From Stegostoma tigrinum (Eukaryota), in contig NC_081360.1 in NCBI RefSeq assembly GCF_030684315.1, positions 26,395,818 through 26,459,817 of the forward strand: 64,000 nucleotides of DNA. The letters run 5' to 3'. The translations under genes and the position numbers were made by a program. This document shows positions 3,862 to 59,754 of the stretch, piece by piece. How positions within the stretch are numbered: the first letter of the stretch is position 1; each line of letters begins with the position of its first letter. The notes beneath the pieces are model-generated. The model searched no databases. It was given only the letters and a program-made list of their open reading frames with translations, and was not told where the DNA came from.

Positions 3862-4025
3862 ACTGAAAGAACTGCAGGTGCTGTATATCAGAAACAAAAA
3901 CAGAAGTTGCTTGATAAGCTCAGCAGGACTGGCAGCATCTGTGAAGAGAAATCAGAGTTAACGTTTCGGGTCCAGCGATGCTTCCTCAGTTCTGCCAGAC
4001 CTGCTGAGCTTTACCAACAACTTCT
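3862..4025. mobile_element. PLE-derived fold-back element (family B)
   Basis: Inverted arms at about 3902-3935 and 3991-4025 surround a minus-strand CTGAGGA...cccGAAACGTT core. Confidence 0.75.
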
Positions 4026-5553
4026 AGCTGGTCTTGAACAAAACTGTGTACCAATTAAAAAGGAAATAATTCCCTGTCAATGGGGCAATGATTTACGTTC
4101 AGTGAGACATTAGTCAAGGAAAACATTTACAAAGTTTTACTGCAACCGGAAAGACTTTGATTGAGCGTGTTGCATTTGTATGGTGGCTCAAGGTGTGCAC
4201 TTAAATGCACATGATGAAGCTGAAGATTTTTTTTGCCTTTGTAATTAAATTTACAGTCAAATTAAAACTGGATCCTTGAGGCACTCATCCACTCAGCAGC
4301 ATTTCTATTAAGTTACTTCAAAAGGAAAGAAGAGATAAAATCAAAGGTTATTTAATGAAGTCAACAAGAGCTTTGGAGTGATCGAGAGCTTCTACAATGA
4401 ATATGCTACGAAGCACAAAAGATCAATACTGGTTGAGATGAATTTGGAGACTGCATTTATTTGGATAATTCCTGTCCTGTATGATGCTAGAGAGCACATC
4501 ATTAACAAAGAAATATGGTGCAGCAGAATATCAGACATGTTCATTAATTACATAATATCATCTGTGAAGAGGCATAACCGACTCTGCTCTGAATTTCTGA
4601 CAGTAAGAGAGTCAATGGATGTGAAAGTTCAGTCAGGGCCCACTACCCTGGATTGCTGTTCATTTTTATAACCTTCCTATTTTCCATAGACACAATCAAC
4701 TACATATTTAGAAGCAGGTACGCAAACAGGGCACATAGATTTAAGCGAAATGATAATGTAACACCATTCACCCCATTTTCCATTACAGCTTTATCATTTA
4801 TTTGTGACAGTGTATAAATAAGAGCAATGATTTTTATAACTCTTAGGCCTGAGGGGTTCTTGAAAGTTCTAAATGTGAATTTTAACATTATTTTGACTTC
4901 AAATATCTGATTCAGTCATATACTTAAATATAATATATGAGATAAAGTTACAGCAATGGAAAAGGAAAAAGCCTGAAACATCAAAAGATTTCACTTACTT
5001 AAAGAACATGACCGTTTGATAGCAAGTAATACATTAGAATGCTGAAATTTCACTCAATTGCCTTGATATTCCAGGAGCATCTCAGTTTTCTCTTTATCAA
5101 AATGATGCCATGGGTAATTTAGATAAGACATGGAAAATGTATTCAGAAGGGACAGAGATGGGTCATTCAAAGGAGTGATATTTTATTGTCCCCTTCCTTT
5201 TGATACTTGTTACATTTTATATTACACCTCCACCTTTACCAAAAGTTTCCATCAAAGATTCAGTCATTTAAAATGCTAGGGGATGTGAGCACGAATGGAT
5301 AATATGGGAACATGGGTGGATAACATTCGTGTGATGGAACATTTTCATGGCATTTCTGATTTCCAATTAAACCACAGGTTTCACAGAGAGAAAAAGAAAT
5401 GTGAGATTTAAAAGACATATGAATGGCAATGTGGTTTTTGTTTGGAAAAAAAACCGGATGAAAACTAAATAGCAAGACTTATTAAATGACAGACAAAAGT
5501 GTTATCAGGATTCCTAGCATGTACATTGACATAAATGCAACATTACACTGTAC

Positions 5554-5610
5554 CTAGAAAGGTTAATCTCAGCAGCCAGCCCCTGGGATTCATCGAGGAC
5601 ATTAGGTTCA
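5554..5610 (-). CDS. UNC80: UNC80 coding exon 17/18 (57 nt), not in ORF track
   Basis: ctgcag|T GAA CCT...TCT AG|gtacag; (S)EPNVLDESQGLAAEINLS. Confidence 0.93.
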
Positions 5611-7574
5611 CTGCAGGGCAGGGAGATGAGTATTTAGGGAAATGAAGCATGCCTTGTCTACAAACAGGGCAATTCACAAGGTAGCATGCTGTTAAACAGC
5701 ATACACTTACTGTACATTGTAAAACAAATCAATAGGCTTAAACAAATCTAGGGACTGGAATTTCAAATCAAGTATAATGCTTAAAACACATGAAAACCAA
5801 AACAAATTCTACATTGCTCTAGACCAGGAGGAAAATCTCACCTACTATACAAAGAATTAATAGAAAATATGATCAATTTTAAGGATGAAGCCTGTTTTGC
5901 TAAATAACAGAATTTCATTTTCTGCCCCATTGGAGGTTCAGAGAGATTTACTTATGGATGTCTAAATTAAACACAAAAAATTGAACATTCTTTAGCAGAC
6001 AATGCTGGAAAATTAAGTCAAATACTTGAATGCTATTCATGCAAATGTTATGTAATAAAATTGTACGGTGTAGGTTTGCACCCATGAACAACTGAGTGCA
6101 GGTAAACATATGAAAACTCAGAAGGTAAGACAACTCAGGCCAGTCTTCACTTTAAGCACTTAAACAGAGATAAAGATTGGTAAAGATTGACAGTGCACCT
6201 GGCCACAGAATATATGTTACAAAGGTACACTGCATAGAAATTAACACTTTAAAAAGAAGGCAAAATGCCACAAACATTGTTCTCAGGACCACAATGTTGC
6301 TTTAGTCTCAAAGTAGAGTGCTCTCAACATTTGAAATCTTTATGAGAAACAATACAGCAGTTTAAGCAATGGCAGTCTTAAAACACTGAACCTGCTGACA
6401 GTATATATTTTTCTTTAGGCTTGGGATATAGACGTCATTGACTGAGCCAGCATTTATTACCCATCCCTTTTAAATTGTGTTGCAAGAAATTAAATGTATT
6501 CAATTCTAATATTAACATTACCATTAACCATTGTCACAGGAACAAATGATTTTATTCATCTCTAAATATTTGGGTGTCATTACTTACCATTATTTTGATT
6601 GTGAATTTGTTAACCGCAATGCTTGATAAACAATTAGAAAATGGGCACAAAAAGTAAATTTACCTTATGTTTAAAATGAGGATCACCCATTACAGATCGG
6701 TTACAGATCAGAGGGTTATTAGCGTCAAATTCTTTCCCACATAGACCAGTGGAGGATCACTGTTATTACTGCTGTGTTTAATTAATCATTTAAAAATAGA
6801 TCAAAAGGATGAAATACATTTTCACCCAAACTCTATATAAAAACCCAAGTGTCAACGATCAAATGAATGTTGATACATGAGTATATTCAAACTAACCTAT
6901 GTTGGATTTTGTTTTCAAAGTTACCAAATGTGTTCTTTGTTATGCTATCCTTTGCTCTTATGCAGTATACAACTTGTCCCAAGTCATCGTCAACATCATT
7001 TCCATTCTGGACAGTTGCCTTCGTTTGATGGAATTTGTGAATTATTGATAGGACTTCACATTAATAGATGTACACACGGCTGACTAAACAGAACATAACA
7101 GTGGAACATGCATGTGGATCCAGGTGGGCTTGGCAAGATTGATATTAAAGGATGTTTCCCCTACTGGGACGGACTAGAACTAAGGGACACAGAATAAGAT
7201 GGGGAGACTCCCATTTCAGATGGGGATGAAGAAAATTTCTCCTCTGGGGGTCATTAGCCTGTGAAATTCTTTTCCCCCACACAGCAGTGCAGAATCACTG
7301 ATTCCTATTACAGCAGAGTTAAGTAGATCTTGCTTGACAAGTAGGTCAAAGGACAAAGGTATTAGACGTGAAAGAGAAAACTGCAATCAGGTCAGCTATG
7401 ATCATTAATATAAACAGATAATGATAACTACTCACTACGAGTCATGGACAGAACTAAATTAATTAAAATAGAAATATTCATAATTTCAAAGCTACTTTAG
7501 TTTTCTTCCAAGTAAAAGCACATGATGCTCCAATAAAATTCATATAAAAGCTAATTCAATGATTACAGCTACAG

Positions 7575-8095
7575 ATGAACATAAAAGATCCCATACCCAC
7601 AACCAATAAAACTAATGTAACATACAAAATGCCATGTAAGGACTGTGAGAAACATCATATAGGCCAAACTGGAAGAAAACTGACAATAAGAATACACAAA
7701 CACCAACTAGCTACCAAGAAACACAACCAATTCTCAAGGGTCTTAATACACTCGGACAAAGGAGGACATGAATTTGACTGGGACAACACATCCATAATAG
7801 CACAAGCCAAACACAGAATTCCTGGAGGCCTGGCATTTCAACTGTAACTCCAACAACAAACACATTGAACCGGACCTGGTATGCAAACCACTGAAAAACA
7901 GAACTCGAAGTGATACCAACCACCCCAGCAAACTGAGGCACATAAATAACAAACGGGACAGGATGCCAGCACTTCACAGGAGGCACACTGATGATGTTAC
8001 TTAGCAGGGTGTCAAAGCATCCACAACCAAACACATTGGCTCAGCAAGCAAATTTACAACCTCATCCACAACCCGAGCTACAAGTCTTCTCAAAA
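7575..8095 (+). mobile_element. Penelope-like element 3' fragment with GIY-YIG endonuclease (family C)
   Basis: NVTYKMPCKDCEKHHIGQTGRKLTIRIHKH is a degenerate PLE GIY-YIG. The terminal region has CTGATGA at 7988-7994. Confidence 0.85.
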
Positions 8096-8229
8096 ACTTT
8101 AATTCAATGGGTTTTTTAAAAAAGAATGACTAGATGTTCTTACAATCTAAGGGAACTAGCTGAGAGAATTCCATAATGCAAATATTTGAGTGCTTCATTG
8201 TATGGATTAGGAATTTCTAAGTCAGCCTA

Positions 8230-8690
8230 ACCGGGATATTGCCGGGAATGGAAGATTTGAGTTATAGGGAGAGGCTGGATAGGCTGAGACTTTTCTCACT
8301 GGAGCATAGGAGGTTGAGAGGTGACTTTACAGAGTATTTTAAATTCGTGGGGGGTATCGATAAGGTGAATGGTAGATATCTTTTCCCTACAGTGGGGCAT
8401 TTCAAGACTAGGGTGCTTTTTTTTTTAAGGTGAGATGGGAAAGATTTAAAAAGGACATGAGGGACAATGTTTTACACAAGGAGCAGTTCGTGTGTGGAAT
8501 GAATTTCATAGGAAGTGGCGGATGCAAGTACAATTACGATCCTTAAGACATTTGGATAAGTGCATGAATGAGATAGGGTTGGAGGGAAATGGGCCAAGTG
8601 CAGACAGGTGAGATTATAGTTTGGTTTGGGATTTTGGTCAGCATGGACTGGTTGGACTGAAAGGTCTGTTTCTGTGTTGTATGACTCAAT
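8230..8690 (+). mobile_element. CR1 (HER1-like) LINE 3' end
   Basis: PGMEDLSYRERLDRLRLFSLEHRRLRGD motif plus the typical tail ...gaaaggtctgtttctgtgttgtatgactc. Confidence 0.9.
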
Positions 8691-9989
8691 GACACAGGAG
8701 AATTCCAGGAACATTTGCAATCCAGTCATCCGTGAGAAACTTGCACCACCATTCTTTTCATCTTTAAGACAGTTCAAACTCTTCATGAAAGTCTCCTTTA
8801 GGAATTTATTTTGCAGCAAACAAATGTTGCTCTGCTTTTGTCTTCACTCACTCTCAAAGTTTAGAATGATGCATCATTGCTGCTTTACAGAGGTCTCCTG
8901 TTCCAGTCACTCCATGAAGATCTCATTGAAAAATTTACCTGCAATGCCCTAGAGGATTGCCACTGGCTTTTAAATGCATTGGAATCAATTTAGCGTGACT
9001 TTATTAATGATCCTGGTGGAGAAGTGGGCTTCATTTTCCCTCATTAACATGCAGGTAACTCTGGCTCCCTCAAATCTAATCTAAATTCTGATAGTATCAA
9101 AATGAGGACAGTGTGAAAATTGTAGCCTCATGATCATGGCCACAAAACTAGGCATTCATCTGACTAACCTCATGTCAACTTAATAAATTAACACAATGTT
9201 TACGTTACTGGTCTAAACATTTAGAGGTATGAGCTGAGACATGTAAATTCAGTAAACAAATTAATCAGGGAACAACAAAAAACTAGTATCTGTAATAACC
9301 ACCATGTAACTAGCATTGGCTCTAAAAATTCAAATGCCTACTAATGTCCTCTTCCATCCATACCAAATTAAATCCACATTAGAAGTATTGTGGACACTTA
9401 ACTGTGCTCTAAAATGGCCCTAATAAAATCATGTAAAAGTAAGTCAGGAATGGACAATAAACATTGGCTTTGCCAGGGACATCATGGTTGAATATGTTAA
9501 GAATTTGAATCAAAATCCAAATGCAAAAGAATCAATTATCAATAAAAGAAACCATGAAACAATTACAAACAAAAGCAGTGTGTCCTGGATAAACACAACA
9601 CGTCTGCCAACATCTGTAGAGAGAAAACAGAGTTAAGTTTTCAAGTCCAGTGACCCTTTTTCTGACCGACAAAGATCACTCTCTAACAAGGAACACAGGA
9701 ACAGTGTACCAGTTAGCCTTGACCCTGTTCCAGTATCCAATAAGATCATAGCTGATTTATAACCTAATTCTATGTTTCTCCCTTTGCCCCACTTCTTCCA
9801 ATGCCTTTGCATATTAAATGTCTCCTTCAAAAATTACCTTTGGATGAGCATCAACTGTAATTTATAGAACAGAATTTAAAACATCTCCCAGCTTTTGAAT
9901 ATACAGGTGTTTTCTAAATTCATTCATGAAAGTCTGGCTCTTTTCTTTTATAAGAAGCCCATTGGTTCAGAAGAATTAAAGGCAATCTT

Positions 9990-11346: not shown

Positions 11347-11494
11347 CTGTTGCTGGGCAAAATTCTGAGGCCGGAGTCTGACTGAGGAGCAGACATGCTA
11401 GAGACATGGCTTGAAAATCGACGACGCCCCCTACTGCTGCTGGCCAAATATGCTTCCTGTTCGCTAACAACACTAGGCATGCTAACGGTGTCAT
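11347..11494 (-). CDS. UNC80: UNC80 coding exon 16/18 (148 nt); the ORF track shows a different frame here
   Basis: ctgcag|AT GAC ACC...AAC AG|gtaatg; (N)DTVSMPSVVSEQEAYLASSSRGRRRFSSHVSSMSAPQSDSGLRILPSN. Confidence 0.94.
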
Positions 11495-12257
11495 CTGCAG
11501 GGCAGAAAGGAAAACCCATTTAGACAGCTTTCTCTTCCTATTGAAACAGCAACATTATGATCCACGCATGAATGACAACATTAAAAATAATAAAGGTAAC
11601 ATGAAACATGCTGGAACCCCCATTAATAGCGGTTTAAACAGTACTTCTGTGCTGAAGATATCGAAGTTGTGAAACTGTTTTTTTTTCCAATTCTTGCGTT
11701 TTAAAAGTACAAAAGTTAAATTGCCTTTCTGTGCGCTGGGTTTGTGTCCATCTGGTGACCAAATAATTTGCCAACAGTCATAAGTGGGTTTTCCTGTGTA
11801 AAATGTACATTTTTCAGTTATGGTCAGTGAAGATTGTAAAAGTGAAAGAGTTTTTAATCCTCCAACCAAAAAAGGGAGGTAATTCATCTGGGATGGGCAT
11901 CAGTGAAACAAAATGGTCCCTCAAAGTGATTTTAGCCCCTGACCCTATATGAACTTTTCAGTTGTACCCCATCAAGGAGTTCCCACTTGAAGCATTTTAC
12001 GTTCTTAAATTCTGTCCCTCCTTCCCATGCAGCTTACCCAGGACACACCATTTCCTGTTTAACACAAACTTTAGCTAATGCAGCTCTGTTTTCAGCTACA
12101 ACACATTATGCAAACATAACACCCAAAGTTGTTGACAGCCTTCTTATGGGAACGCAGAATGCTGCTATTTCAATATTTGATTTGTGTGCGCTCCCAAGTA
12201 ATGAAAGCTAGAATGCAAATTTGGTACTTGTAGCACTGCTTTACTAAATAATAAATA

Positions 12258-12360
12258 AGTTCTGAGGAAGTGTTACTGGACCTGTAATGATAACTTTAAT
12301 TTCTCTTCACAGATGCTGACAGACCTGTGAGCTTTTCCAGCAACACCTGTTTTTGATGCT
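12258..12360 (+). mobile_element. PLE family B terminal fragment
   Basis: agttctgaggaagtgttactggacc...cacagatgctgacagacctgtgagcttttccagcaac, homologous to the 3862 and 58993 copies. Confidence 0.75.
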
Positions 12361-12884
12361 TTTTTAAATAAATACAGTATTGTTGCTATGTGCACAATCG
12401 CCACATATTATTGGAAAAATAGAGAAAAATACATGTAGTTCACAGAGACACTTCTAGCAGAAGTTACTGACCAATAATCAACAGTAGATACTTAACTTCT
12501 TCGTCAAACTCTAACTCCAAGTTGCTAAAACTAATTCTCACCATGGCCCCAAAGTCACTCATTTACTCTTTTAGTCATTGGGTAAACTCTACAAAAAGCT
12601 ATATCTTTAGTTATCTGTTTGGCAGGATGGGATTAAAGTAGAAAATGAGTAGAGAGAAAACTGGTAAAGCAAAATACTGTCCACCGCACTGTCCCAAATA
12701 ACTACATCTATATGGTCCACCAGAAAGCTTACCTGCCACAAAATTCCATGTCTTTTTGCCATGCTGTCTTGTGAGTCAGTGTGTAGATTTGGAACGTAGT
12801 ATTGGCATAAAGGCCATTATCTATCACTGAAACCAAACATACTAGAACATCCTAACCATGTGGTTATCTTGTTATAGAACATCT

Positions 12885-15390: not shown

Positions 15391-16432
15391 TTACACCATT
15401 CTAGCATTTCGGGAAATCAAACACTGCATCAACAGATGCTATAGCAGCTGACCCTCAATGTAAGCAATCCAGTAGAGGATTTTTTTTTAAGAAAACAACC
15501 ACGGACAATATCAGCCAGAGTCTTTCTACAATCTAGAAAAAGGACAAAAAGAACTTGGGGTCATGGCATTTATGCAGACTTTATCTCCCTTTCAAGAGCG
15601 TTTGAGTCTGCTCCACAAATCTGTGACTTCCACACTGCATCTTAGCACATACCACTGAGTTGAAATGATCAAATAGACTTGTCAAGATCGGGTTTCCCTT
15701 CTGTGTTATTCATGCACCATTCCATTTCATCGACTGGCAAAAATAGGGGCTGGGTTTCCACAACCTGAGACATCTGTCAATTTTGAAAACCTGCAGATTC
15801 TTCCCAACTCTCTGAAAATCCAGTCCTAATTCTTACACAATCAAACAGCAACATCTTAGATCAATTACCACAACATACCAGAAATCGCACCTCAGGCTAA
15901 CCTGCATTATGTCTCAGACTTTGTACACACACACTCTTTTATATTCCCACTGAGTTGGATTACTGATTTATATGCAAGCGGGTATTTCTTTTTGAGCAGC
16001 AGAAAATGCTGATTGAATTTTGTGTCAAGAATTTTTAAGTTAAGAAAAACTTGTTCCAAGTTAAAAATGCAGCTTTTAGTGTTCGTCATCATGCTTCTTA
16101 GGTGCAAGACTGGGCTGAAATTTGAATAATGTTTGGTTGAAAATTCTGTAGCTTGCTGAAGAATTGCACAAGCAAAGAATTTATTGATCGGAAATTTTGC
16201 AAATTACAGAGGTGCATTTAATGTTCTAACAGGCACCATTCGAAGACAATTCAACTTAGACCTCATGTTGCATTAAGTACAGAAACAGCAGCTCATGCTA
16301 TTTTTCATAGCCAGAATGAATCACGATTGTTGAAATGAAAGAAGTGCAAATGATGATCAGACTGTCATGTTCAATCTAATAAAAGAAAATATCATGCAAG
16401 TTGAATTGAAGCAGTTAATGACAAGTGCTCAC

Positions 16433-16612
16433 TTTCACCATCCTCCTCATCAGTCCTGCTTAGTGTGTCCTGAGAGGCCTGATGAGAAGGTTGGCTGTCC
16501 TGCTCCCACACAGTGCCTGTCCCCGTGTTTGAACGAGACATGGTGGCCAGACTCAAGCGGTAAGCTGATGTGGAGGTTCCCACAGTGCTGATGGAAGGTT
16601 TGCCTTGGTATG
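16433..16612 (-). CDS. UNC80: UNC80 coding exon 15/18 (180 nt)
   Basis: ttgcag|CA TAC CAA...GAA A|gtgagc; (A)YQGKPSISTVGTSTSAYRLSLATMSRSNTG...RTDEEDGE. Confidence 0.95.
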
Positions 16613-22135: not shown

Positions 22136-22137
22136 CG

Positions 22138-23880
22138 TAGAACAATGCAGCACAGGAACAGGCCCTTCAGCCCACTTTACCTGTGCCCAGCATGATGCCA
22201 TTCAAAACTAATCCCATCTGCTTGCACATGGTCTGTGTCCCTTTGTTCCCCACCTGTTCATAAGTCTTTCTAATTGCCTCTTAAACGTTGTTATTGTATC
22301 TGCTTCTGCCACCTTCCCTGCTAGTATGTTCTGGGCATCTACCACCCACTGTGTAAAAAGACTTGCCTTGCACATCTCTTTACACTTGCCCCTACTCTCT
22401 CAAACTTATTTCTTCAAGTATTTAACGTTTCCATCCTGGAAGAAAGACACTGACTATTTACCTTATCCATGCCTCTCAATTTTATATGCTTTGATCAGGT
22501 AACCCGTCAGCTTCTGACACTAACAAAAATAATCCAAGTTTGTGTGACCTCATAGCTTATACATTCTAAACCAGGCAAAATCCTAGGAAACTGAGATAAC
22601 AAGGTGCAGAGCTGGATGAATACAGCAGGCCAAGCAGCATTAGAGGAGCAGGAAGGCTGACATTTCTTCTCTCCGCGTTCTGGGCCGAGAATGGTCTTCA
22701 TTTTCAGGAAAAGGGTCTAGGCTCGAAACGTCAGCTTTCCTGTTCCTCTGATGCTGCTTGGCCTGCTGTGTTCATCCAGCTCTACACCTGGTTATCTCAG
22801 ACTGTCCAGCATCTGCAGTTCCTGCTATGCCTAAAATCCTTGGAAACTTCTTTTGCAGGCTCTCCAAAGCCTCTATATTCTTCCTATAGTATGGTGACCA
22901 GAACTGCACACAATATTCCAAATGTGGCCAAACTAAACTCTTGTACAGCTGCAATATGACTTGCTAACTTTTACACTCAATGCACTGTCCAATGAAGACA
23001 AGCTTGCCTGTACGCCTCCTTTAGCACTTTATTCACCTCTGTGACTACTTTCAGGGGGCTGTGGATTTCTCGAAATCAATGATCCTAAGGATCCTGTCAT
23101 CTACTGTGTATCTTCTTCCTTAATTTTACCTCCCAAAATGCATCTCCTTACTTGAAAAAACTCCATCTGCCATTATAGCGCCCAAATTTGACTGATCTGT
23201 ATCCTGTTGTGTGGCTTGACAACCTCCCTCATTATCCACAACTCCACCAATTTTTGTGTCATCCGCATACTCAATAATTAGATAACCTATATGTTCACCC
23301 AAATCATTTATATATATTAGAAATAACAGAGCTCCCAGTGCTGATTATTGCAGAACACCATTGGTCACAGGCCTCCAGTCCAAAAAGCACACCTTCACCA
23401 CAAATGTCCATCTTCCAAGACAAAGCCAATTTTGTATCAAACTTACCAACTCACCATGGATTGCATGCGGCTTCATCTCTTAGACCAGCCCATCATGAGG
23501 AACCTTGTCAAATGCTTTAGTAGAACACATATAGATAATATCCACTGCCCTACTCTTAGCCTTCATAAACAAAATAATAACATTGGCTATTCTCAAGTCT
23601 TCTGTGACATTGCCTAGGGTTAATGTGGTATAGAAAGGTCTTCGTCAAGACCCCAGCAATCTCTGTCCTTGTTCCCCTCAATAACACAGGGTGGATCCCA
23701 TCAGGCTCTCAAGACTTATCTTCATTAATGCTTTCCAAGACACCCAACAGCACCACCTTCTTAATATCAACATGCCCTAGAAAATGAGAATTCCCCTCCC
23801 TCTTCTTCACATCATCCACGTTCTTCCCTTTGGTGAATATCAATGCAAAGTATGCACTAATGACCTCACAACATTTATAA
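22138..23880 (-). mobile_element. CR1 LINE (minus strand), interrupted by a PLE fold-back insertion
   Basis: LYKSLVWPHLEYCVQFWSPYYRKNIEALESLQKKF. The tail lies at 22138-22200 and RT remnants extend to about 23880. Confidence 0.85.
22593..22832. mobile_element. PLE-derived fold-back element (family A) with 16-bp TSD
   Basis: Inverted arms 22591-22666 and 22725-22800, flanked by aaaatcct(a/t)ggaaact at 22577-22592 and 22833-22848. Confidence 0.88.
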
Positions 23881-29702: not shown

Positions 29703-29784
29703 CCTGACAGATCTAAAGAAGTAACATTGGACTCGAAATGTTAACTCTGTTTCACTCTCCACAGATGCTGCCAGAACTGTCAGG
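29703..29784 (+). mobile_element. PLE family B terminal fragment abutting a family A PLE
   Basis: ctaaagaagtaacattggactcgaaatgttaactctgtttcactctccacagatgctgccaga. Confidence 0.7.
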
Positions 29785-31905
29785 TAGTATAGCGCACTGA
29801 CCTCTACATCACGTCAACTCTCCAACACCACCTCCTACTGCCCCCTTGATCATGACCCCACCCTCGACTACCAACCCATCCACAACCTCATCACTTCAGG
29901 TGACCTCCCACCCACAGCCTCCAACTTCATCGTTCCCCAACCTCGCACCGCCGGCTTCTATCTTATTCCCAAAATCCACAAATGTGACTGCCCTGGTCGA
30001 CCCATTGTCTCTGCCTGCTTCAGCCCCATTGAGCTTATCTCCACCTATCTGGTCTCCATTTTCTCCCTCTTGGTCCAGGAACTCCATACCTACATCCGTG
30101 ACACCACTCTCACCCTCTACCTCCTCCAGAACTTCCAATTCCTCGGTCCCCAACACCTCATCTGTACCATGGATGTCCAGTCCCTATACATCTGCATTCC
30201 GCATGCAGGTGGCCTAAAGTCCCTTCCCTTCTTTCTGTCCTGCAGGCCTGACCAGTCCCCCTCCACTGACACCCTCATCTGCTTAGCCGAACTCATCCTC
30301 ACCCTCAACAAATTCTCTTTCAATTCCTCCCACTTCCTACAGACAAAGGGGGTGGCCATGGGTACCCGCATGGGCCCAAGCTATGCCTGCCTCTTTGTAG
30401 GTTACGTGGAACAATCCGTCTTCCCGCACCCACACTGGCCCTAAACCCTGCCTCTTCCTTCGTTACATTGATGATTGTATCAGCGCCGCTCGTGCTCCCT
30501 CGAGGAGTTTGGACAGTTCATCCACTTCACCAACACCTTCCACCCCAACCTTAAGTTCACCTGGACCATCTATAATATCTCTCACTCCTTCCTGGACCTC
30601 TCTGTCTCCATCTCAGGCAACCACCTAGAAAGTGACATCCATTTCAAGGCCACCGACTCCCACAGCTACCTAGAATACACCTCCTCCCACCCACCCTCCT
30701 GCAAAAATTCCATCCCCTATTCCCAATTCCTTTACCTCCGCTGCATTTGCTCCCAGGATGAGGCATTTCACTCCCGTACATCTCAGATGTCCTCGTTTTT
30801 CAAGGACCGCAACTTCCCCCCATCAGTGGTCAAGAATGCCCTTGGCCATGTCTTGTGCATTTCCTGCGACTCATCCTCACACCCCCTCCCCACACAATAA
30901 CCACCAACCTCTGGATCCAACGCATCATCCTCCAATACTTCAGTCGTCTGCAATCTGACCCACCACCAAACATATTTTTCCCTCCCCACCTTTAACTGCT
31001 GTCCAGAGGGACCACTCTCAGCGACTCCCTTGACCACTCCACACTCCCCTCCAGCCCCACCTCACCCAGCACTTTTCCCTGCAACCACAGGAAGTGCTGT
31101 ACCTGCCTCCACACCTCCCCACCTCACCCTGGGCCCCAAGATGACTTTCCACATCAAGCAGGTGTTCATCTGCACATCTGCCAATGTGGTATACTGTATC
31201 CGCTGTACCCGGTGTGGCCTCCTCTACATTGGGGAAACCAAGCGGAGGCTTGGGAACCGCTTTGCAGAACACCTACGCTCGGTTCACAATAAACAACTGC
31301 ATCTCCCAGTCGCGAACCATTTCAACCCACCCTCCCATTCTGCAGACGACATGTCCATCATGAGCCTCCTGCAGTGCCACAATGATGCCACCCGAAGGTT
31401 GCAGAAACAGCAACTCGTATTCCCCTTGGGAACCCTGCAACCCAATGGTATCAATGTGGACTTCACAAGCTTCAAAATCTCCCCTCCCCTGACTGCTTCC
31501 CAGAACTAGCTCAGCTCATCCCCGCCCCCCCAACCTGTCCTTCCTCCTGCCTATCCCCTCCTCCCACTTCAAGCCGCACCCACATTTCCTACCTACTAAC
31601 CTCATCCCGCCCCCTTGACCTGTCCTTCGTTGCTGGACTGACCTATCCCCCCCAACTCCACACCACGACTCCATCCCTGCCTTTTTGACCTATCTGTCTC
31701 CTCTCCACCTATCTTCTCCTCTATCCATCTTCTATCCGCCTCTCGCTCTCTCCCTATTTATTTCAAAATCCCCTTCCCCTCCCCCATTTCTGAAGAAGGG
31801 TCTAGGCCCGAAACATCAGCCTTGCTGCTCGGTCTGCTGTGTACATCCAGTCTACACCTTATTATCTCAGATTCTCCAGCATCTGCAGTTCCTACTATCT
31901 CTGAA
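29785..31905 (+). mobile_element. Penelope-like retroelement (RT + GIY-YIG), 5'-truncated and frameshifted (family A)
   Basis: RT motifs TMDVQSLY, GVAMG and RYIDD (30461-30475). GIY-YIG NVVYCIRCTRCGLLYIGETKRRL. C-rich 3' region, then a terminus with a hammerhead-like core. Confidence 0.93.
31790..31817 (+). ncRNA. Minimal hammerhead ribozyme-like motif in the PLE terminus
   Basis: CTGAAGA-a-GGG(tctagg)CCC-GAAAC-ATC. PLE termini are known to carry minimal hammerheads. Confidence 0.65.
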
Positions 31906-32217
31906 ACAACCGTTAGGACATGTATGTGTTTATATGTTTTGATTTGATTGTCTAATAATTTTGTTCCCGCCTATAGAAAATACTTCTCAGGGAGGTGAAA
32001 TTTACTTTAGATTCTTCTAATTTTCCAATTGTAACCTTGGTGAAAGCTTGGGGAAACTGACTAAATCTATATTTGTGCCATATCTCCAGAGTTTCTGTTG
32101 TTCATGGGAAAGTGAGAGATTGAGAGACTTTTCTCCCCTGCCTTGTGAAACCCCTTCTTCCCAGCCAGCAACCAGGAAGTTTCACCTTCACGACTTGAAG
32201 CAGTAAAACACGAATAC

Positions 32218-37479: not shown

Positions 37480-38070
37480 TTATTGATTTTTATGACTTGT
37501 GTATAATATTGGTCTCCTGATTCAAGGTAGGATATTGGAAGCAGCTCAGAGGTTGTCTACTGGACTAATACCTTGTCTTGTGAGAAAAGGTTGGTAAGGA
37601 TGGCTTCCATCTGCTAGAATTTAAAGATGCAAGCAGCAACTTGATTGAAATTTTAGATCCTGAGGTGGATTCGCAGATTGGATGTGGAAAGGATTTCTCT
37701 TGTAATCTGGAATGAGGGCGTCACCCAAATAATAGGAAAGTGAGGATTTCTTTTTTTCACACAGGGGGCCAGCAGTCTTTGGATCTCTTCTTGAAAAGGC
37801 AGTGGAAGCAGGGTCTTTGAATATTTTTAAGACAGTGGAAGATGAAGGGTTTGGTAAGCATGGGTCGAAAGGTTCAAAAACAAAATTGCTGGAAAAGCTC
37901 AGCAGGTCTGGCAGCATCTGTGATGGAGAAAACAGAGTTATAATTTGAAAGGTTATCTGGGACACACAGGGAACGCAGATTTGAGGTTCCAATCAGATCA
38001 GCCATGATCTTATTGAATGATAGAACAAGGTTCATAAGGTCAAAGGCCTATTAATGCTCCTAACTAGTAT
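37480..38070 (+). mobile_element. Old CR1 3' end containing a family B PLE terminal piece (minus strand, about 37875-37942)
   Basis: CR1-like tail cagatcagccatgatcttattgaatg. The insert reads aattgctggaaaagctcagcaggtctggcagcatctg. Confidence 0.7.
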
Positions 38071-48150: not shown

Positions 48151-48289
48151 TTGAATCACCTTACCTGTGTTTACAAGAACAAGGTAACAGACATATAGGA
48201 TGACCACAGTGTGCAAAGGGTAATTTGTGATTTTGTGTTTTCTTGTGACTTAAAAGCTATTAACAGTTTCCTAATTCCTCCACCACTGC

Positions 48290-49390
48290 CCCGTCTGCAG
48301 CCAAGTTGGGGCGTTCCACTCCCGGACACCCCAGACGTCCTCTTATTTCAAGGACCGCAACCTCCCTCCCTTCAGTGGTCAAAAACGCTCTCAACTGTGT
48401 CTGTTGCGTTTCCCGTGCCTGTCTTCACATCCCTTCCCTCCAACAAAAACAAAGACAGAATCCCCCTTGTCCTCACATATCACCCCGCTAACCTCCGCAT
48501 CCAACATACCATTCACCCCACTTCTGTCACCTACAATCCGGCCTCACAACCTCCCTGCCCTTACCTGCCTTTCGTAGGGTCCGCTCTTTCTGTGACTTCC
48601 TCGTCTGCTCCACCCTCCCCACCAGCCCCACCGCCCCCGGACCTTTCCCTACAACCTCAGGAAGTGCTACGCCTGTCCCAACACCTCCCTCCTCAACTTC
48701 ATCCAAGGAACCAAACAAACTTTCCACATCAGACAGAGGTTCACTTGCACCCTGTCAATGTGGTCTACTGCATCCGCTACTCCCGTTGTGACCTCCCGTA
48801 CATCGGTGAGACCAAGCGGAGGCTCAGAGGCCACATTGTAGAGCACCTACACTCTGTTCATGACAAAAAACACATTCTGGTCATGAACCATTTCAACTCC
48901 CTCTCCCTGGGTGACATGTCCATCCTGGGCCTCCTCCAGTATCACAATGACACCACCCACAAACTGGAGGAACAACATCTCATTTTCCGCCTTGGGAGCC
49001 TACAACCCAATGGTTTCAATGTGGACTTTACAAGCTTCAAAATCTTCCCACCCTCGGCCTCATCCCGTGACTAACCCTCCCTCTCATCCCCGCCTCCTTG
49101 ACCTGACATAACCTGTCCATCTTCTCTCCCACCTATCCACTCCTCCCAAACCACTGACCAATCCCCATCATTGCCTACCTGCACTCACCTATCACCATTC
49201 CACCTACCTTCCACAGCCCCACCCCTCCTCTCTATTTATTTCAGAGCTCCCTTCCCCCTCACTATTTCTGAAGAAGGGCGCCAAAACAAAATGTCAATTT
49301 TCCTGCTCCTCTGATGCTGCCTGGCCTGCTGTGTTCCTCCAGCTCCACACTGTTACCTCTGACTCCAACATTGGCACTTCTTACTATCTC
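48290..49390 (+). mobile_element. Penelope-like element 3' part (GIY-YIG), family A
   Basis: KDRIPLVLTYHP and NVVYCIRYSRCDLPYIGETKRRL. The terminus ttctgaagaagggc... has a decayed hammerhead. Confidence 0.9.
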
Positions 49391-49394
49391 TTGG

Positions 49395-49690: not shown

Positions 49691-49744
49691 TAGTGTATTA
49701 TTTTATAAATCTGAAACATTGTCTCGATAGCTCTTTCATAAAAG

Positions 49745-50325
49745 GTCACCAATATACTCTACAAACTCACAGACTTCAACAGTTAGCTCAATTACACATG
49801 CTCACATCCTGTTTCCCGTAAGGGCTCCACCCCATTCTCCCAGTTTCTCCATCTCCATCTCCATCTCATCTGTTCTCTCCATGGCGCATTCTGCAGGAGT
49901 CCTCAGAAATGTCCACCTTTCTCCTCAAAAGAGGATTCCCTGCTGCCACAGTCGCTGGGGGGTTCAACCTATCTCTCATACTTTGACCTTCACTCCTTTC
50001 CTTTCCCCCCACAACCTCTGGGAGGTTGGGTTCCTCTGGTTCCTCACTTATCTTCCCACTAGCTTCCTCAATCAAAGGATTATAAGGTGCCATTTCCATT
50101 ACCTTCAATGGGATGCCATGACGTGACATATATATTCCCCTCTCTTCTCTTGTCAGCATTCCTCAGGGACCAATCTATCCAGGCCCATCTAGTCCACTAT
50201 TCCTCCACTCCTAACATCTCCTCACACCCTCACAGCACCTTCCCACGCAACTGCAGAAGGTGTAACACCTGTCTGTTTCCCTCTTCCCTCCACACTATCC
50301 AAGGCTACAATCATACATAAACCAA
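49745..50325 (+). mobile_element. Older Penelope-like element internal fragment
   Basis: Homologous to 30640-31140, e.g. ccattctcccagtttctccatctcc and cccacgcaactgcagaaggtgtaacacctg. Confidence 0.8.
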
Positions 50326-50679
50326 ATGAAGCATCATTTTGCCATTCATGAATGCATTAAGAATTATATATGACATTAGTTACACCACAATCTGAGTACA
50401 ATTCTGGTCACTAATTACAGGAGAGATATGATTGTAATGAAAAGGGTGTGGAGGAGATTTGTGGGTGAGTTGCCAGAGCTGTAAAACTTTACCTAAGATA
50501 ACAGATTGGATACACTGTTGCTGTTTTCTTTGGAATAGATGATGCTGTGGGGAAACTTCATTGAGGTGAATACAGTTAGGAGTCGTCAGGATACAGTAAA
50601 GAAGGATGGCCTTTTTGGCTTAACTAAGAGAGTGAAAAGCAGAGGTACAGATTTATGTTATTTAGCACAAGGATAAGAA

Positions 50680-51127: not shown

Positions 51128-51724
51128 CCAGGAGAGGGAGATGTGGAAATTTTCTTTTTCAACCCAGGGAGTGATCGGGACTTGAAACTCTCTGTCTGAA
51201 AGAGGCAAAAACTCTTACTGTATTTACAAAGTAATTCTATGTTGAATTGAAGACCTGGGGCCACTGTGGATCTTGCACAGGAAAATAACATTAAGCATGG
51301 TTAATGTTCATCACCCAGCATGTGCACAATGGGACCTATGAACTTCTTCAGTGTGAAAAATCTTCTATGATTTCAAACACCATAACCTGCATGTGCCCTT
51401 CCAAGTCACATATCATCCAGACTCTGAGCTCCATGCTCACTCTGTCAAATTCCCCTAAAATGTTATCCCTAACATCTTTGTGGGTCTACCTACACCAGGT
51501 AGACTGCAGCCGTTCAAGAAGGCAACTCACCACTATCATGACAAGTATAATCAATGGCAAAGGCATAAACAACAGAGTTACAGCAATGCACAGATCCACA
51601 AACGAATTGTAAACACATCGTAACAATTTACCTTCCCCAGAGATCATATATTTCTGAGCTGTATTTGCACCCCTCTCATGAAAACTTTAGTAACTCACCT
51701 ATAGGATGACATTGGATATTAGCT

Positions 51725-51804
51725 AATAAAATGTGAGGCTGGATGAACACAGCAGGCCAAGCAGCATCTCAGGAGATTCTCCAGCATCTGCAGTTCCCAT
51801 TATC
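51725..51804. mobile_element. 80-bp PLE family A mini-insertion with 13-bp TSD
   Basis: ttggatattagct at 51712-51724 and 51805-51817. Confidence 0.88.
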
Positions 51805-52689
51805 TTGGATATTAGCTGACAGGTTCAATCATATGTCAAGCATTCTTTTGCAAAAGGTAGCTGAAACTTGTACCTCTGATAGGGTCCCAATACTACTCAA
51901 AATGTGCACAATGTGTATCCATCCTGCAGCAGTTGGGAGGTTTATGGTAATATGTTGAAATCATTTTATAGACTATTTTGCTGTCAGATGATTGTGGGAT
52001 ACATTAGGAGTGGCAGATTAGTTACTTCTGGAATACTGACCTTGCTGATTCTCTATGTCAATTTACAGAGTCTCAACTGCTCTAGAACTCAGTATACCAG
52101 CTGATTTTTAGCTAATAAATATTGTTCACTATCCTGTTCAAAGGTATTGTGACACACCTCTGGGACTTGAACCAGGCCTTCCTGGCCCAGAGGTAAGGAC
52201 ACTAGAAGATCCAATTCACACCATAAGTAGCAATATGTCACTGGTCTGAATTAAAGCACAGGCAATTTTACTCAAAGAGAGAGTTTCTGACTGTATCATG
52301 TTCATGAGAATTTATATTTGTACTGGTAAGTCATCACCATTTTTGGAGGTGGGTAAGTCAATCCATCCGACATTGTTGAGATTGCAATGACTCCAAAAGG
52401 TTTAGTTGACAATAGATGGCTGGAACCATCTGAATTAGTCTGCTAAGGGTGAATTTTAACTCAATGGTCATGGTGGAGGATTTAATGAATTCAACCTGAC
52501 AATCTCCTGATCTTTGGATGTCAAAACAATGCAGGCCACAGTACAGCTTTCATGATGCTTTTTGTTTGGTCATCAGTGCAGACTCTATAGGCCAAAGGGC
52601 CTCTTCTGTACAGTATGACTATGTATAAAATTCAGAGATAGACCGGTTTGGAACATTTCACATCATTATTAACCACTTGCAAGTTTCCT

Positions 52690-54420: not shown

Positions 54421-54669
54421 CTAAATACAAAAACAAAATACAAGTTTTCTTTGACACAATTTTTGCTTTCACGGCAGACTTGACTCCTTCTATGGTAAGT
54501 ATTGTTCGCCTAGTTAAGATGGTGATAAGTTGAGCCGATAGAGCTGAAAGGTGATAGGTCGAATAGTATGTATCTGATCTCAGCCAGAGTAACTCAGACA
54601 TATCTCTGCATCCTTGTGTAAGGGGGAGGAGAAAATCGGCCAAGTCTCTCTCTGATCACTATTTTTTTT

Positions 54670-54912
54670 CCAATCAATCTGTTCAGAGATGTTCTTACAC
54701 ATTTCTAGTGCAAGAGGGGCTTGAACTCAGGCCTCCTGGTTCAGGGGTATGGCAGGATAACAAAGTGTGGGGCTGGATGAACACAGCAGGCCAAGCAGCA
54801 TCTCAGGAGCACAAAAGCTGATGTTTCGGGCCTAGACCCTTCATCAGAAAAAGCTGGGACTTGAACCCAGACCTCTTGACTCAAAGTTAGGGATACTTCC
54901 TCTGCACCACAG
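54670..54912 (-). mobile_element. Short tRNA-like SINE pieces flanking a PLE family A terminus (54755-54851)
   Basis: SINE pieces are homologous to 63885-63985 and 52132-52203. The PLE terminus reads gataacaaagtgtggggctggatgaacac...gacccttcatcagaaa. Confidence 0.8.
54820..54847 (-). ncRNA. Minimal hammerhead ribozyme-like motif, sense to the UNC80 pre-mRNA
   Basis: Minus strand reads CTGATGA-a-GGG(tctagg)CCC-GAAAC-ATC. Confidence 0.65.
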
Positions 54913-55058
54913 CAAGTTTGAAGGGCCTGGCGACCTACTTTTATTCCTTGCTCCGATCCAAAAACTTTGCCAAGCCAGAACTGTATATTATTTAAAAACA
55001 GGTTCGAATAAATATCTGGGGCCAACATGAGAGGGATGGAACAATTTTATTTACTTAC

Positions 55059-55193
55059 TGAGAACTCCAGTAGTGGTGCTGCACTTGCAAATAATTGAAG
55101 AATAAAAGGCTTTCGATGCAAAACATAAAACTGTCGACAAGAAAATTCAATTGCTTGGCGTAGCAATGGATTGCTTTCATAATCAGCATAGAC
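55059..55193 (-). CDS. UNC80: UNC80 coding exon 2/18 (135 nt)
   Basis: ttgcag|GTC TAT...TTC TCA|gtaagt; VYADYESNPLLRQAIEFSCRQFYVLHRKPFILQLFASAAPLLEFS. Confidence 0.96.
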
Positions 55194-55364
55194 CTGCAAG
55201 AGGGAATATTTTGAAACAATGTGAATACTAGCAATAAACACACTTTATATAGCCTTTGATAAATACACATAGGTGTTGTAAATTTGAGCAGCGTGATAAG
55301 ATTCTATTTGCATGCATGATTTTTGCATGTGAGGTTGTATTCTTTATATTGTTACAGAAAGGAG

Positions 55365-55998
55365 AGGCATGCATTTACAGAGTGCCTTTTATGACCTGAA
55401 AGTGCACCAAAGAATGTTAAGCTATGACAATCTTTAAATTTGTAGTCAGTTTTGCAGGAAGGGAAAACAGCAGTCAATTTGCAAACTGCAACCTTCTACA
55501 ACAGCAATGAAACAATGACACCCCTATACAGTCAGTGGGGTAAAGCACAGAAACAGATCCATATCTCTCTAAACACTTCCTATTCATATACCCATCCAGA
55601 TGGCTTTTAAATGTTATAATTGCATCAGCCTCCATCACTTCCTCTGGCAGCTCAATCTGGACAAACGCCACCCTCTGCATGAAAAAGTTGCCCCTCACCT
55701 TAAACTTATGTCTTGGAGCTTTAGATTCCCCTACCCTGGTGAAAAGGCATTAGTTTTCTTTTAACATCTTTTTAAATTGGTATTGAGTGAGGGATAAATA
55801 TTGACAACAGTACTGGAATGCTGCGCTCGGGGAAGCAATGTGGTCTTTTATCTCCATTCACCTGAATTGAATGCCGACAATTTTTTTTGCCTAATACTGC
55901 TACTTGCCACACACAGTTACTGTTGTGGTTTGTCTTGTGAGCTTGCAAAGAGAATTAACGAGTGTACAGCTGCATCACACTCAACAGTATTGAAACAG
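55365..55998 (-). mobile_element. DeuSINE-like element split by a CR1 3' fragment (about 55522-55750)
   Basis: Deu-like segments gcagtcaatttgcaaactgcaaccttctacaacagcaatg and gagggataaatattgac flank CR1 RGNFFMQRVAFVQIELPEEV. Confidence 0.65.
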
Positions 55999-56899
55999 AG
56001 GATGGTTTGAAAACAAATCGAAGGATGCTCTGGTAATTTATGTATTAACTTCACATGAAAATACAATGTCTTGGTTTATATGTATCTCATGCATGGTACA
56101 AAATTTGAAACCAAAGAACAGGAAGAAAACTTTCTATTATATAGTCTTAAGAACAAGCTCATATGTTTTTGTTTCTGAATGCACTGAGTTTATTGTGTCA
56201 ATCAAAGTGAAGTGAATACAGCTGAAAGGCATTGCAGGACTAATGCCACTTCAGCCCAAGCCTGCATACTGGCCCCATCTTGCTGCACGCAGGTATAGGA
56301 CAGCTTCATTATCTCAGGAATTGCAAATGGCACTAAACATTGTCATCATCAGCAATCTTATGAAGAAGGTAAGGATGTTGTTGTTTAAACAGCTGAAGCA
56401 GACTGGACCTAGGTCTACAGGTAACAATGAAGAACATGAAGACAGAAGGAATAGTTTGGGACAATGCTTTATTTGCTTACTATAGTTTAGTATTAATACT
56501 GCAGTCGCATGCTATCCCCAATGTTCGCATTGTCTTCTCTCAAACTGTATTCTGTGCAGAATGAAGACTTTTTTGACAGTAATAAAGATTGGAAAATATG
56601 ATACTACTATGATCTAAAGAATAAGAATCTGCTTGACATTTTTTGTTCGGTTGCAGCATACTGCCAAACACAGAAACCCGTCACAATAATCAATAATCTC
56701 CTAACAAGTTACTAAGAAATCTATGCGAAGGCATTTACATGTTTTCTTTAGGTGTAGGCCAATTTTACATCCCTATATGTCCTGTCCCACCGGCAGGACA
56801 GACTTGGCAGAGGTGGCGGCACAGTGGTACAGTCAGGAGGGAGTGTCCCCTAGGAATCCTTAACATTGACTCTGGGCTCTAAGAAGTGTCATGACTACA

Positions 56900-57340
56900 G
56901 GCTAACCATGGCAAGGGACCCTCCTTTCAAATATCACACAACATCCTCCATCAGTTGGTGAATCAGAGCTCCTCCATGTTGAGCAATGCTTTGAAGCACG
57001 GAACGTGGAAAGGACACAAAACGTATTCTGATGGGAGATTTCAACATGTGCTCCTAGGAGTGGCTCAGCATCAGCACTACTGATCGAGTTGGTTGGGTGC
57101 TAAAGGACATAGTTACTAGATTGGGTCTGCGGCAGGTAATGAGGGGAATCAACAAGAGGAAAAGCATACATGGCCTCATTCTTACCAATTTTCCAGCTGC
57201 AGATGCATGTCTCCATGACATGAGTGGTAAAAAAGTGACCACTGCATGGTCCTTGCAGAGACAAAGTCCCCTGCGTCACATTGTGACACCATCACTGTGC
57301 TAATGGGACAGACTCCAACAGATCTTGCAACTCAAGGCTG
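56900..57340 (+). mobile_element. LINE APE-endonuclease region remnant
   Basis: ctgatgggagatttcaac (LMGDFN), then LKDIVTRLGLRQVMRG...LILTN. Confidence 0.7.
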
Positions 57341-58319
57341 GCTTAACAAGAGAACTTAAAAGAAGAATTGTATATGGTATTTTGAATCTCATCTGAAGTA
57401 TCCAGTAGCCATATCCAAAGTATTTGAGGCTCATTCTTCTGCTATTGTTTCATAATGTCAATTGTCTGTTGTTATTATTTATCTCTGTCCTTAATGTTTC
57501 AGGATTTCAAAGTAAGACTTGTGTTTAAAACAGATTATGGTCTATTAAGCTCCATTATATATTCTTCTACAGAAGCATTGTTAGATTTCTAAATTTATCA
57601 AAGTCTGAGTGTGCCTCATGTGCATTGAACAGATTTTCTTAGCAACTTTGACCACAAATATTAGAAGATTATCCAAGCATTCCTCAGTGTCAAATTCCTG
57701 AGCCTCCATCTCTGAAAATATTTTACACCCGATCCTGTTTCAGGCAGGAAGGAATTGTACAAACATCAGTGGGAAATGACATCCTGACACTTTGTTTGCT
57801 TCAGCCATTCTTCTTAAAAGCAAATCAAATTCCCATATCCTGTTGGAATAAAAAAAATCCCCTATTTCCAATCTTTACCTTCTGGCAACCATCCTGTTCT
57901 AGCAATGTCCACACAGACCCAAGCCTGATGGTGAAATAGAACTTAAGGCACATTTCCTTGTGGTTAGCATTTATCAACCTTTCAGTAACCTAGCTCCTAT
58001 CATCCTAAACACCACCTGTTCACCTTTTATATTTACTCGTCTTTAATTAATCAATTAAACACAGTCAGCAGCAGCAACTCTTTTGCGCTAACACTAATTT
58101 CTACCAAAGATGTATAACACTGCTTGCATTCAGATGTGTACTTTGCTTATTTATTAACACAAGTTCTTCTTAAGTTTGGTTTGTTCTTAAGCACATAAAC
58201 CTAGTCCATGCTTTCTATTAATTTGGGTGTGGAAGGCAGTTAAATTGGGAAAAAAAAATCTTAAGTGTTAATAATGGGCTTGATAATGGGCTGTATAACG
58301 CAGTGAGGCATAACACTAG

Positions 58320-58625
58320 TAAATCCAATATCTGTTGCCCATCCCTAACTACACTTGGCTGGGCAGCTGACATTGCCATTTCAAACAGCAGTTCAGAGTC
58401 ATCCATGTTCCTGTAGGCCAGACCAGGAGATGACCTAAAGGACATTAATAAACTCGATGGGTTTTTACAATTGATAGTTCCAGGTCACCTTTCCTGAGAC
58501 TAGCTTTTAATTCCAGGTTCATTAACTGAATTTGAATTCTGAAAGTTTTCATGGTGGGATTGTCATACATATTACAAGACTAACAGTTTGGATCTCTGGA
58601 CTACTAGTCCAGTGACACTACCAGT
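58320..58625 (-). mobile_element. tRNA-derived SINE with gggatgggca tail
   Basis: Reverse complement of 59755-60065. Further copies lie at about 1600-1790 (minus) and 9205-9480 (plus). Confidence 0.7.
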
Positions 58626-58992
58626 TCCCAGTTTCCCTTTGGTTTTTCTCTTGGCCCTTCTGGGTTTAAATCCCACCATGACTTTTAGAAGAATCTAAAT
58701 TCAATTACCAAAAATCTTCAATTAAAAGTAAGATGCAGAGATAAAAATTCCCACATTGATAGGCCCAAATGTGCCTGCATTAAGCAACATGGGTTGACTC
58801 TGAAATGGCTGTGCAAGCCACTACTATAAGCTGGTGCAAGATGACAAAGGAGTGAAACCGTACAGACCGCCACTATCAGCTGAGGAACTGGAAATGACAA
58901 AGGCACTCCTGTCTGGTGAACTTACACCCTACTAACATCTTGCACCCAATGCTAAAATTACGAGAGCTATCACACAGATTAATAAAACTGCA

Positions 58993-59194
58993 AAAAGCAG
59001 AAGTTGCTGGAAAAGCTCAGCAGGTCCAGCAGCATCTGCAAAGAGAAATCAGAGTTAATGTTTCTGTTCTGGTGGTACACAAAACGTTAACTCTGATTTT
59101 TTCCTCACAGGTGCCGCCAGACCTGCTGTGCTTTTCTAGCAACTTCTGCTTTTGTTTCTGATTCACAGCATCTGCATTTCTTTTGGTTTTTATG
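58993..59194. mobile_element. PLE-derived fold-back element (family B)
   Basis: Arms of about 70 bp at 58993-59060 and 59081-59153 with a short spacer, plus an imperfect 13-bp flanking direct repeat. Confidence 0.85.
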
Positions 59195-59754
59195 TAATAA
59201 AGCCACAGGCTTGTACAGTCATGCTCACTGAATTATACCACATGGACAATGTCCCAGGCCCAGACTAGGAGCAATACCCACATCCAGTGAGAGTATAAAA
59301 AACAAACCTCTTCCCAGCCATTGTCTCTGTATGAATCGGACATCCATATTGACCTCGGGGTGTACTTAATATCCACTGTCCTGTCCATGACAGAAAAAGC
59401 ACTTCCTTCAATCTTCACAATGTTATTACATCGTTACGTCACCACCTCCCCAACAACATTCCCTGAAACACATATTCAATACTTTGTGAAACTACGTCCA
59501 GACAGAACTATTCCAACGTATACTTGGTTAGTCACCCCTAATCTATCATTAAACATCTGATCATACAAAACACTACTGCACAGATCCTTACCCACATCAA
59601 CTCCTTCTCATGCACTAATCTTTCCTTGCTAAGCAACATCAGCTCCTGTCCCGCAAAGATTTCACATTTAGCTTACTTACTTTTGTGTTAAAATACTTCC
59701 ATGCCCTTGGTATAGTTTGAGATTTGTAATCTTCTTTAGTGGGGAAATGGTAGG

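Follow-up and report, generated by a model that had tools for sequence, protein, structure and literature searches.

Short hammerhead-bearing repeats in the Stegostoma tigrinum genome as probable by-products of Penelope-like element copying

A 64,000-nucleotide stretch of Stegostoma tigrinum DNA (NC_081360.1, positions 26395818-26459817 of a 3.2-Gb genome; hereafter the window) contains three families of short repeats, A, B and C, that carry minimal hammerhead ribozyme (HHR) cores and lie in introns of the gene UNC80. With a probability of roughly 70%, we conclude that these short repeats are by-products of the copying of autonomous Penelope-like elements (PLEs) and not a separate family of retrozymes, and that the points at which they start mark the ends of PLE RNA. 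The repeats are decaying insertions of pseudo-long terminal repeats (pLTRs) with minimal hammerheads, derived from three protein-coding PLE families. Such stubs end at two known internal start points of reverse transcriptase (RT), and they are therefore likely to be short cDNAs of autonomous PLE RNA, made mostly on uncut templates. Throughout, we call each directional piece of an insertion an arm, and positions are counted from +1, the first C of the CUGANGA core, without a position 0; the predicted cut in family A falls between +28 and +29.

Hammerhead families and their coding parents

The 28-mer core of family A and the 30-mer core of family B had 96,611 and 738 exact copies in the genome, respectively, and the reversed control of each had 0. 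A descriptor of the complete minimal HHR gave 112 matches in 1.4 Mb of unselected DNA (eight chromosomal blocks), whereas five dinucleotide-shuffled versions gave 0, 3, 0, 0 and 1. Of the 112 matches, 77 belonged to the main family A group; the 112 extrapolate to about 256,000 intact-looking motifs genome-wide. Random blocks of C3, C4 and C12 contained, besides several unassigned single motifs, two or more additional HHR variants that resemble family C and have 6-bp stems. An earlier reading of the window, made from its sequence alone, had proposed a scan with hammerhead models. The full descriptor did match in the genome sample; Rfam matched no hammerhead up to E 10. In the window itself the complete descriptor gave 0 matches, so the caveat of the sequence-only reading that no copy there has all elements intact stands.

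Core consensus sequences were built from the majority bases of arms picked on their downstream sequence alone (215 for family A, 78 for B and 6 for C). The CUGANGA and GAAA boxes with an NUH site form the majority in all three families, whereas individual window copies fail. Stem II is paired over 4 bp in A, 5 bp in B and 6 bp in C, and both the unpaired base after A9 and the G10.1-C11.1 pair are present. The sequence of stem II differs among the families and yet pairs; within families only one-sided changes were observed (U-G/U-A and U-G/C-G), so that the support from covariation is modest. Stem III is an ACGU palindrome that has decayed at its CpG in many copies, with C-G retained in 131 of 214 family A arms. 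The family consensus sequences thus carry the palindrome and the NUH site that the sequence-only reading had pointed out. It had also called stem I short, in agreement with the 2 bp, 4 bp and 3 bp found for A, B and C, respectively. Catalytic bases outside CpG were changed at 8 of 620 positions and downstream bases at 41 of 2,914, which indicates neutral decay.

Folding predicted that the family A monomer forms an inactive hairpin in which +1..+6 pair with +25..+30. This would hold the 5' box of the core against the cut-site region and might act as a built-in off state. Stem II of family A together with its CUAG loop constitutes a near-perfect 12-nt palindrome (for example at window positions 31798-31809). 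A homodimer through this palindrome is predicted at about -15 kcal/mol relative to two monomers and could provide a second dimer contact, which would be absent in family B.

As the sequence-only reading had proposed, the hammerheads belong to PLEs: they lie in the pLTRs of coding elements, with RT and endonuclease parents found for A and endonuclease parents for B and C, where the endonuclease end alone was looked at. Translations of family A contain RT motifs, a CxxxxCxxC linker and a GIY-YIG domain (Pfam E 0.0012, below the Pfam cut-off) in one open reading frame (ORF), and young relatives that are 92-98% alike occur throughout the genome. A related Neptune-type endonuclease, with 40-59% protein identity to that of A, is located directly upstream of the family B core in 5 of 30 loci. 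Family C cores lie downstream of a linker-less GIY-YIG domain, and this includes the copy in the window. The zinc-finger-like CxxxxCxxC linker, present in the translations of A and B and absent before the C endonuclease, is the single character by which we would place A and B in the Neptune/Nematis clade and C in the Penelope/Poseidon clade. Among 30 loci chosen by ORF start, 13 have a pLTR piece in direct orientation that continues into the ORF, and two of these pieces begin at -4 and -2. Partial tandems, inverted 5' copies and an optional 30-40-nt tail, all features of PLEs, were seen in family A.

Insertion ends and the RNA ends they may record

The 3' ends of family A arms cluster at +90-95 and +126-133. 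These clusters correspond to the tail that PLEs optionally carry (PMC8557442) and to the two points at which RT starts internally on an anole element (PMC11167929). Head-to-head pairs were composed of one tailed and one short arm in 43 of 47 cases.

The 5' ends showed a sharp onset just before the core. Among 180 young family A arms from the unselected 1.4 Mb, 110 started between -9 and +60, 33 of them at -9..-1, while 0 started at -20..-10 and 2 at -49..-21. Similarly, 38 of 107 family B arms started at -9..-1, and 5 reached past -100. Starts in family A were then counted genome-wide with a pattern of three non-reference bases followed by 21 reference bases, at positions -9, -4, -3, +25, +28, +29, +30 and +33. 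Upstream of the core this gave 56 starts at -9, 8,050 at -4 and 2,576 at -3. The base preceding -4 was G in 83 of the 100 matches listed first, which come from the beginning of C1 and were inspected by eye. Fifty of these, 40 with GAG and 10 with AGG, are likely joints between two arms; in the remaining 50, G was found in 33, where the template has C and about 25% would be expected (p 1e-9). In sampled genome DNA, 9 of 11 such bases were G. Reverse transcriptases copy the RNA cap as an extra G. A TATA-like box starts at -34 in A and at -33 in B (5 of 6 long copies), that is, 30 nt above the -4 start in A, and family B has an initiator-like TCAGTT at -6..-1 and a 4-bp stem I that begins exactly at -4. 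The -4 start of family A is thus likely to represent a capped RNA start.

A second, smaller peak coincides with the predicted cut site. Genome-wide, family A starts at +29 numbered 3,201 (1,044 + 2,157), versus 165 at +25, 480 at +28, 407 at +30 and 677 at +33, about a third of the listed +33 matches being single-base deletions. Palindromic head-to-head joints, formed at 4-nt palindromes, numbered 771 at +29 versus 154 at +13, 313 at +16, 55 at +24 and 25 at about +56. G preceded +29 in 25 of 60 cases, where 40% is expected, and hence there was no excess. Within 1.83 Mb, 5 of 183 arms started at +29, 0 at +27, 0 at +28 and 1 at each of +30 to +33. Cut-site starts therefore make up about 1-3% of arms, and a large cut-site peak was rejected. 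At a little over even odds, we take the +29 peak to be a fossil of ribozyme cleavage in vivo, the RNA having been cut at the predicted site.

These ends would fit the following course of events. RNA polymerase II would start 4 nt before the core and 30 nt below the TATA-like box, so that a capped RNA would have the HHR as its first 32 nt. After the target has been nicked by the PLE protein, reverse transcription would start internally at +93 or +130, an internal start having been demonstrated in vitro with the anole element. When priming takes place in the 5' pLTR, RT would run for 100-135 nt to the cap, which it would often copy as an additional G. Microhomology would then join two such cDNAs, one primed on each side of the break, and the resulting head-to-head pair would have a short arm and a tailed arm. 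Uncut RNA would be the usual template, and a few per cent of templates would already have been cleaved by the ribozyme. Longer copies would arise by priming in the 3' pLTR with ordinary 5' truncation, and once inserted all copies would decay neutrally. In the anole element, RT primes internally, both strands are cut, protein assists cleavage by the HHR, and uncut RNA serves as the main template (PMC11167929); weak dimer cleavage has been reported in PMC4209133.

Several observations weigh against this interpretation. The start site, the cap and the cleavage are all read from DNA joints alone. In family B the excess of G at -4 is weak (G 41, A 42 and T 17 among 100 matches listed), and more of the sampled arms start at -3 (13, the mode) than at -4 (8). 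Family C lacks a wall of starts at the core (2 of 28 at -9..-1); its TATA-like box lies about 47 nt before the core, so that its RNA may start at a more upstream position than that of A and B. Microhomology is present at the joint in about two thirds of the +29 matches (80 of the 100 listed among the 2,157 with AAA, and 41 of the 100 listed among the 1,044 with AGG), which could come from ends at +30 to +32 as well. Without these joints +29 retains about 1,000 starts versus about 400 at +30, a roughly 2.5-fold difference obtained by hand arithmetic from the first 100 matches listed. The base of the predicted +1..+30 hairpin could moreover pause RT near +31. Stem I of family A is just 2 bp long, and the homodimer predicted for this family pairs via stem II and is not an active HHR dimer, although folding is uninformative for such short stems. 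Short copies make up a different share of each subfamily (14 of 67 copies in the young, 39 of 71 in the middle and 16 of 27 in the old one), one subfamily variant reaching p 5e-5 in a test that is biased by an identity filter against old long copies. Finally, 95% of family B arms are short, and short-copy masters may add to them.

The last two points bear on the view of the sequence-only reading that the short copies are non-autonomous and retrozyme-like. In this alternative they would be solo pLTRs with an internal promoter, or retrozyme arrays or circles, transcribed alone and mobilised in trans by the PLE protein. It would account for the 102 of 107 family B arms that stop short of -100 and for the varying short share of family A subfamilies. 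Furthermore, the Penelope element of Drosophila virilis has an internal promoter (PMC8557442), and pLTR-derived retrozymes are reported in vertebrates, one chondrichthyan included (bioRxiv 10.64898/2026.07.22.740005). The genome also contains one array of this type, at C4:40079900-40082780. Its 429-nt unit spans the pLTR from -115 to +317 with a TATA-like box and the HHR; five units on one strand face two on the other head-to-head, and these seven HHR-bearing units supply 7 of the 112 motifs of the 1.4 Mb. Its arms end at +95 and about +140, and one starts exactly at +29. The array fits the definition of a non-LTR retrozyme and is a single case. A genome-wide search with its unit joint gave 6 matches, all 6 at that locus, and a dispersed family of the 429-nt array was accordingly rejected; the other 105 of the 112 intact motifs lie outside it. 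The stubs, by contrast, consist of the coding element's own pLTR, lack the TATA-like box, and cross the cut site to end 65-105 nt beyond it, unlike a cut-to-cut monomer. Nor is any of the three age classes of family A short-only, the numbers of short and long copies being 14 and 53 (young), 39 and 32 (middle) and 16 and 11 (old). In the window, insertions are single or head-to-head, and head-to-tail units with a complete HHR were sought there and none was found. The retrozyme-like view is therefore not upheld for the window, where the pLTRs are those of coding elements and the ends fit the inferred capped start and RT starts, and we regard it as unlikely for the short copies at large. A share of the stubs may nonetheless come from non-autonomous masters, above all in family B.

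It is rather improbable that the peaks of starts reflect stalling of RT at RNA structure or at an upstream C-rich tract, with the HHR acting only as a structural road-block, and not RNA ends. The predicted hairpin at +1..+30, the broad scatter of starts from +1 to +60 and the many joints explained by microhomology would all suit such stalling. The main wall, however, lies 5' of the hairpin, which RT has already passed at that point, and family B has the same wall with a different upstream sequence. Stalling would also leave unexplained the extra G at -4 and its absence at +29, the 30-nt TATA spacing and the full-length copies that begin at -4 and -2. We give hardly any credence to the explanation that recombination or deletion reduced longer insertions to solo pLTRs and that the stubs are what remains of them. 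Such an origin has been suggested for some solo pLTRs of rotifers without target duplications (PMC3846280), and the higher short share of older subfamilies would fit it; but 5 of the 9 window insertions tested have flanking target duplications of 7-11 bp, the -4 start is precise to the base and has the extra G, and in head-to-head pairs the short and the tailed end are fixed.

Neither the class of ribozyme nor its PLE host nor the shapes of the insertions are new, and in this respect the finding as written is ordinary. Its value lies in the joint statistics of about 10^5 near-identical young copies, which give predictions at the level of single bases (RNA that starts with a cap at -4, RT starts at two points, and a less frequent RNA end without a cap at +29) and make the in vivo activity of PLE hammerheads directly testable. 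Whether these hammerheads cut in vivo, and for what purpose, is called unclear in PMC8557442. A wider proposal, which we offer tentatively and at somewhat less than even odds, is that the genome constitutes a fossil record of both 5' ends of PLE RNA, the capped -4 end and the uncapped cut site, written in hundreds of thousands of insertion joints. The hammerhead would form the first 32 nt of the mRNA, which would explain its short stem I, and would serve as a decapping switch that rarely fires in vivo, either in tandem transcripts or upon binding of the PLE protein, while RT that primes inside the 5' pLTR would generate large numbers of "strong-stop" stubs. Should the base-level predictions hold, they would account for the great abundance of solo minimal hammerheads in animal genomes, and no separate family of retrozymes would be needed.

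Copies in the UNC80 window

All sites named by the sequence-only reading were found in the sequence. Family A is represented by cores at 31790-31817 (plus strand) and 54820-54847 (minus strand) and by decayed ones at 22704 and 49268. The first of these cores belongs to a 5'-truncated, decayed Neptune-type PLE at 29783-31907 (plus strand), which retains RT, CxxxxCxxC linker, GIY-YIG and pLTR and is 78% identical to a young copy over -2122..+131. The second lies in a solo stub at 54753-54851 (minus strand, sense to UNC80), which extends from just before the core to +95 and is 96% identical to a young copy. In both of these best family A cores the stem III palindrome ACGU has been lost by CpG decay. 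An older 5'-truncated copy at 48268-49391 (plus strand) has endonuclease remains and the decayed core at 49268. The head-to-head pair at 22587-22836 consists of a minus arm from +21 and a plus arm running from the core through the tail, and is flanked by an 8-bp target duplication. At 51721-51814, a stub without HHR has an inverted +39..+93 piece joined to the tail (+98..+136), with an 11-bp target duplication.

For family B, the best core (3960-3989, minus strand) has a broken stem II and is part of a stub at 3850-4025 (minus strand) that covers +1..+132 and has a short inverted partner at 3983-4025. Decayed stubs are located at 9561-9664 (minus strand; core at about 9634-9663), at 12255-12366 (plus strand; core at 12262, start just before the core, 8-bp target duplication) and at 29708-29779 (plus strand; core at 29712), the last of which adjoins the long family A copy. 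Two further insertions lack all or part of the core: a stub from about +30 at 37875-37940 (minus strand) has no core, and the arms of the head-to-head pair at 58990-59193 start at +23 and +24, so that the 5' half of the core is missing. One arm of this pair is short and one tailed, and a 7-bp target duplication flanks it. Family C is present as the 5'-truncated end of a Penelope/Poseidon-like PLE at 7564-8100 (plus strand), with GIY-YIG remains, a 10-bp target duplication and a dead core at 7988-8021 in which G12 and the GAAA box are damaged.

Three window copies thus keep RT or endonuclease remains. The statement of the sequence-only reading that most copies are short and non-coding needs correction for this family C copy and for the two family A copies, which are 2.1-kb and 1.1-kb pieces of the coding element.

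The placement of the repeats in UNC80 introns was borne out: UNC80 is on the minus strand of the window, and 13 of 21 UNC80_C matches fall within it, at 18908-63448. Further exons, which we presume from protein motifs alone, lie at about 16400-16600, 11350-11500, 5600 and 250, and the gene likely continues to the left end of the window. A role of the repeats in UNC80 was considered and rejected for want of evidence, because no core is intact and the family decays neutrally; after insertion the copies likely do nothing in this gene.

Other repeats were also observed in the window. A family B-like PLE coding fragment with the thumb and linker region, and without a pLTR of its own, is present at 49896-50339 (plus strand). 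Pieces of a tRNA-like short interspersed nuclear element (SINE) occur at 54846-54902, 52160-52203 and 54714-54757 (Rfam tRNA score 25.8, weak and below the cut-off), and the family A stub at 54753-54851 lies between two of them. Inverted arms at 58154-58412 and 59767-60227, 83-88% identical and about 1.1-1.9 kb apart, are likely a relic of a DNA transposon, within which the family B pair at 58990-59193 sits.

Comparison with known systems

Minimal type I hammerheads (min-HHR) in the pLTRs of metazoan PLEs were described in 2014 by Cervera and De la Pena (PMC4209133). The motifs analysed here share with them CUGANGA, one unpaired base, a stem II with G10.1-C11.1, GAAA, the palindromic 15.2/16.2 positions, the NUH site and a short stem I, and in both cases most occur as single copies or opposite-strand pairs tied to truncated PLEs. 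The lengths of stem I (2, 4 and 3 bp in A, B and C) compare with the 4-5 bp expected of a metazoan PLE min-HHR. The copy number, about 256,000 by extrapolation, compares with about 4,000 in coelacanth and about 9,000 in Xenopus, counted with a different descriptor. Sharks are not named in the accessible text of that paper or in one supplement. No published account of PLE hammerhead stubs in sharks, and none of a cap-G signature or a footprint at the cut site, came up in a literature search that left most subscription journals and Repbase reports uncovered.

Like non-LTR retrozymes (PMC7229834; bioRxiv 10.64898/2026.07.22.740005), the repeats have a type I HHR and originate from PLE pLTRs; unlike them, the copies in the window lack tandem units and occur singly or as inverted pairs, with lengths of 65-250 nt. 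With other endonuclease-containing (EN+) PLEs (PMC8557442 and PMC3846280) they share pLTR-ORF partial tandems, head-to-head pairs with palindromic joints, a tail at one end only, and TATA and initiator-like motifs in the pLTR. Palindromic joints are attributed in PMC3846280 to self-priming on an antisense template, whereas here we infer two sense-templated cDNAs that end at one RNA start.

A close parallel to the proposed copying is the Poseidon element PAc of Anolis (Frangieh et al. 2024, PMC11167929). There, too, the two 3' ends are separated by 30-40 nt and correspond to two internal RT starts that lie about 100 nt beyond the HHR, both strands are cut and extended, uncut RNA is the main template, and the HHR lies at the pLTR-ORF junction. 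For PAc, the one element that has been studied biochemically, RNA reads ending at the HHR site were looked for without success, and the accessible part of that paper contains no analysis of the 5' ends of genomic stubs. Unlike PAc, A and B are of the Neptune type, and the likely start codon of family A is located downstream of the tail; the stub joints described here, in addition, point to a capped start at -4 together with a minor start at the cut site.

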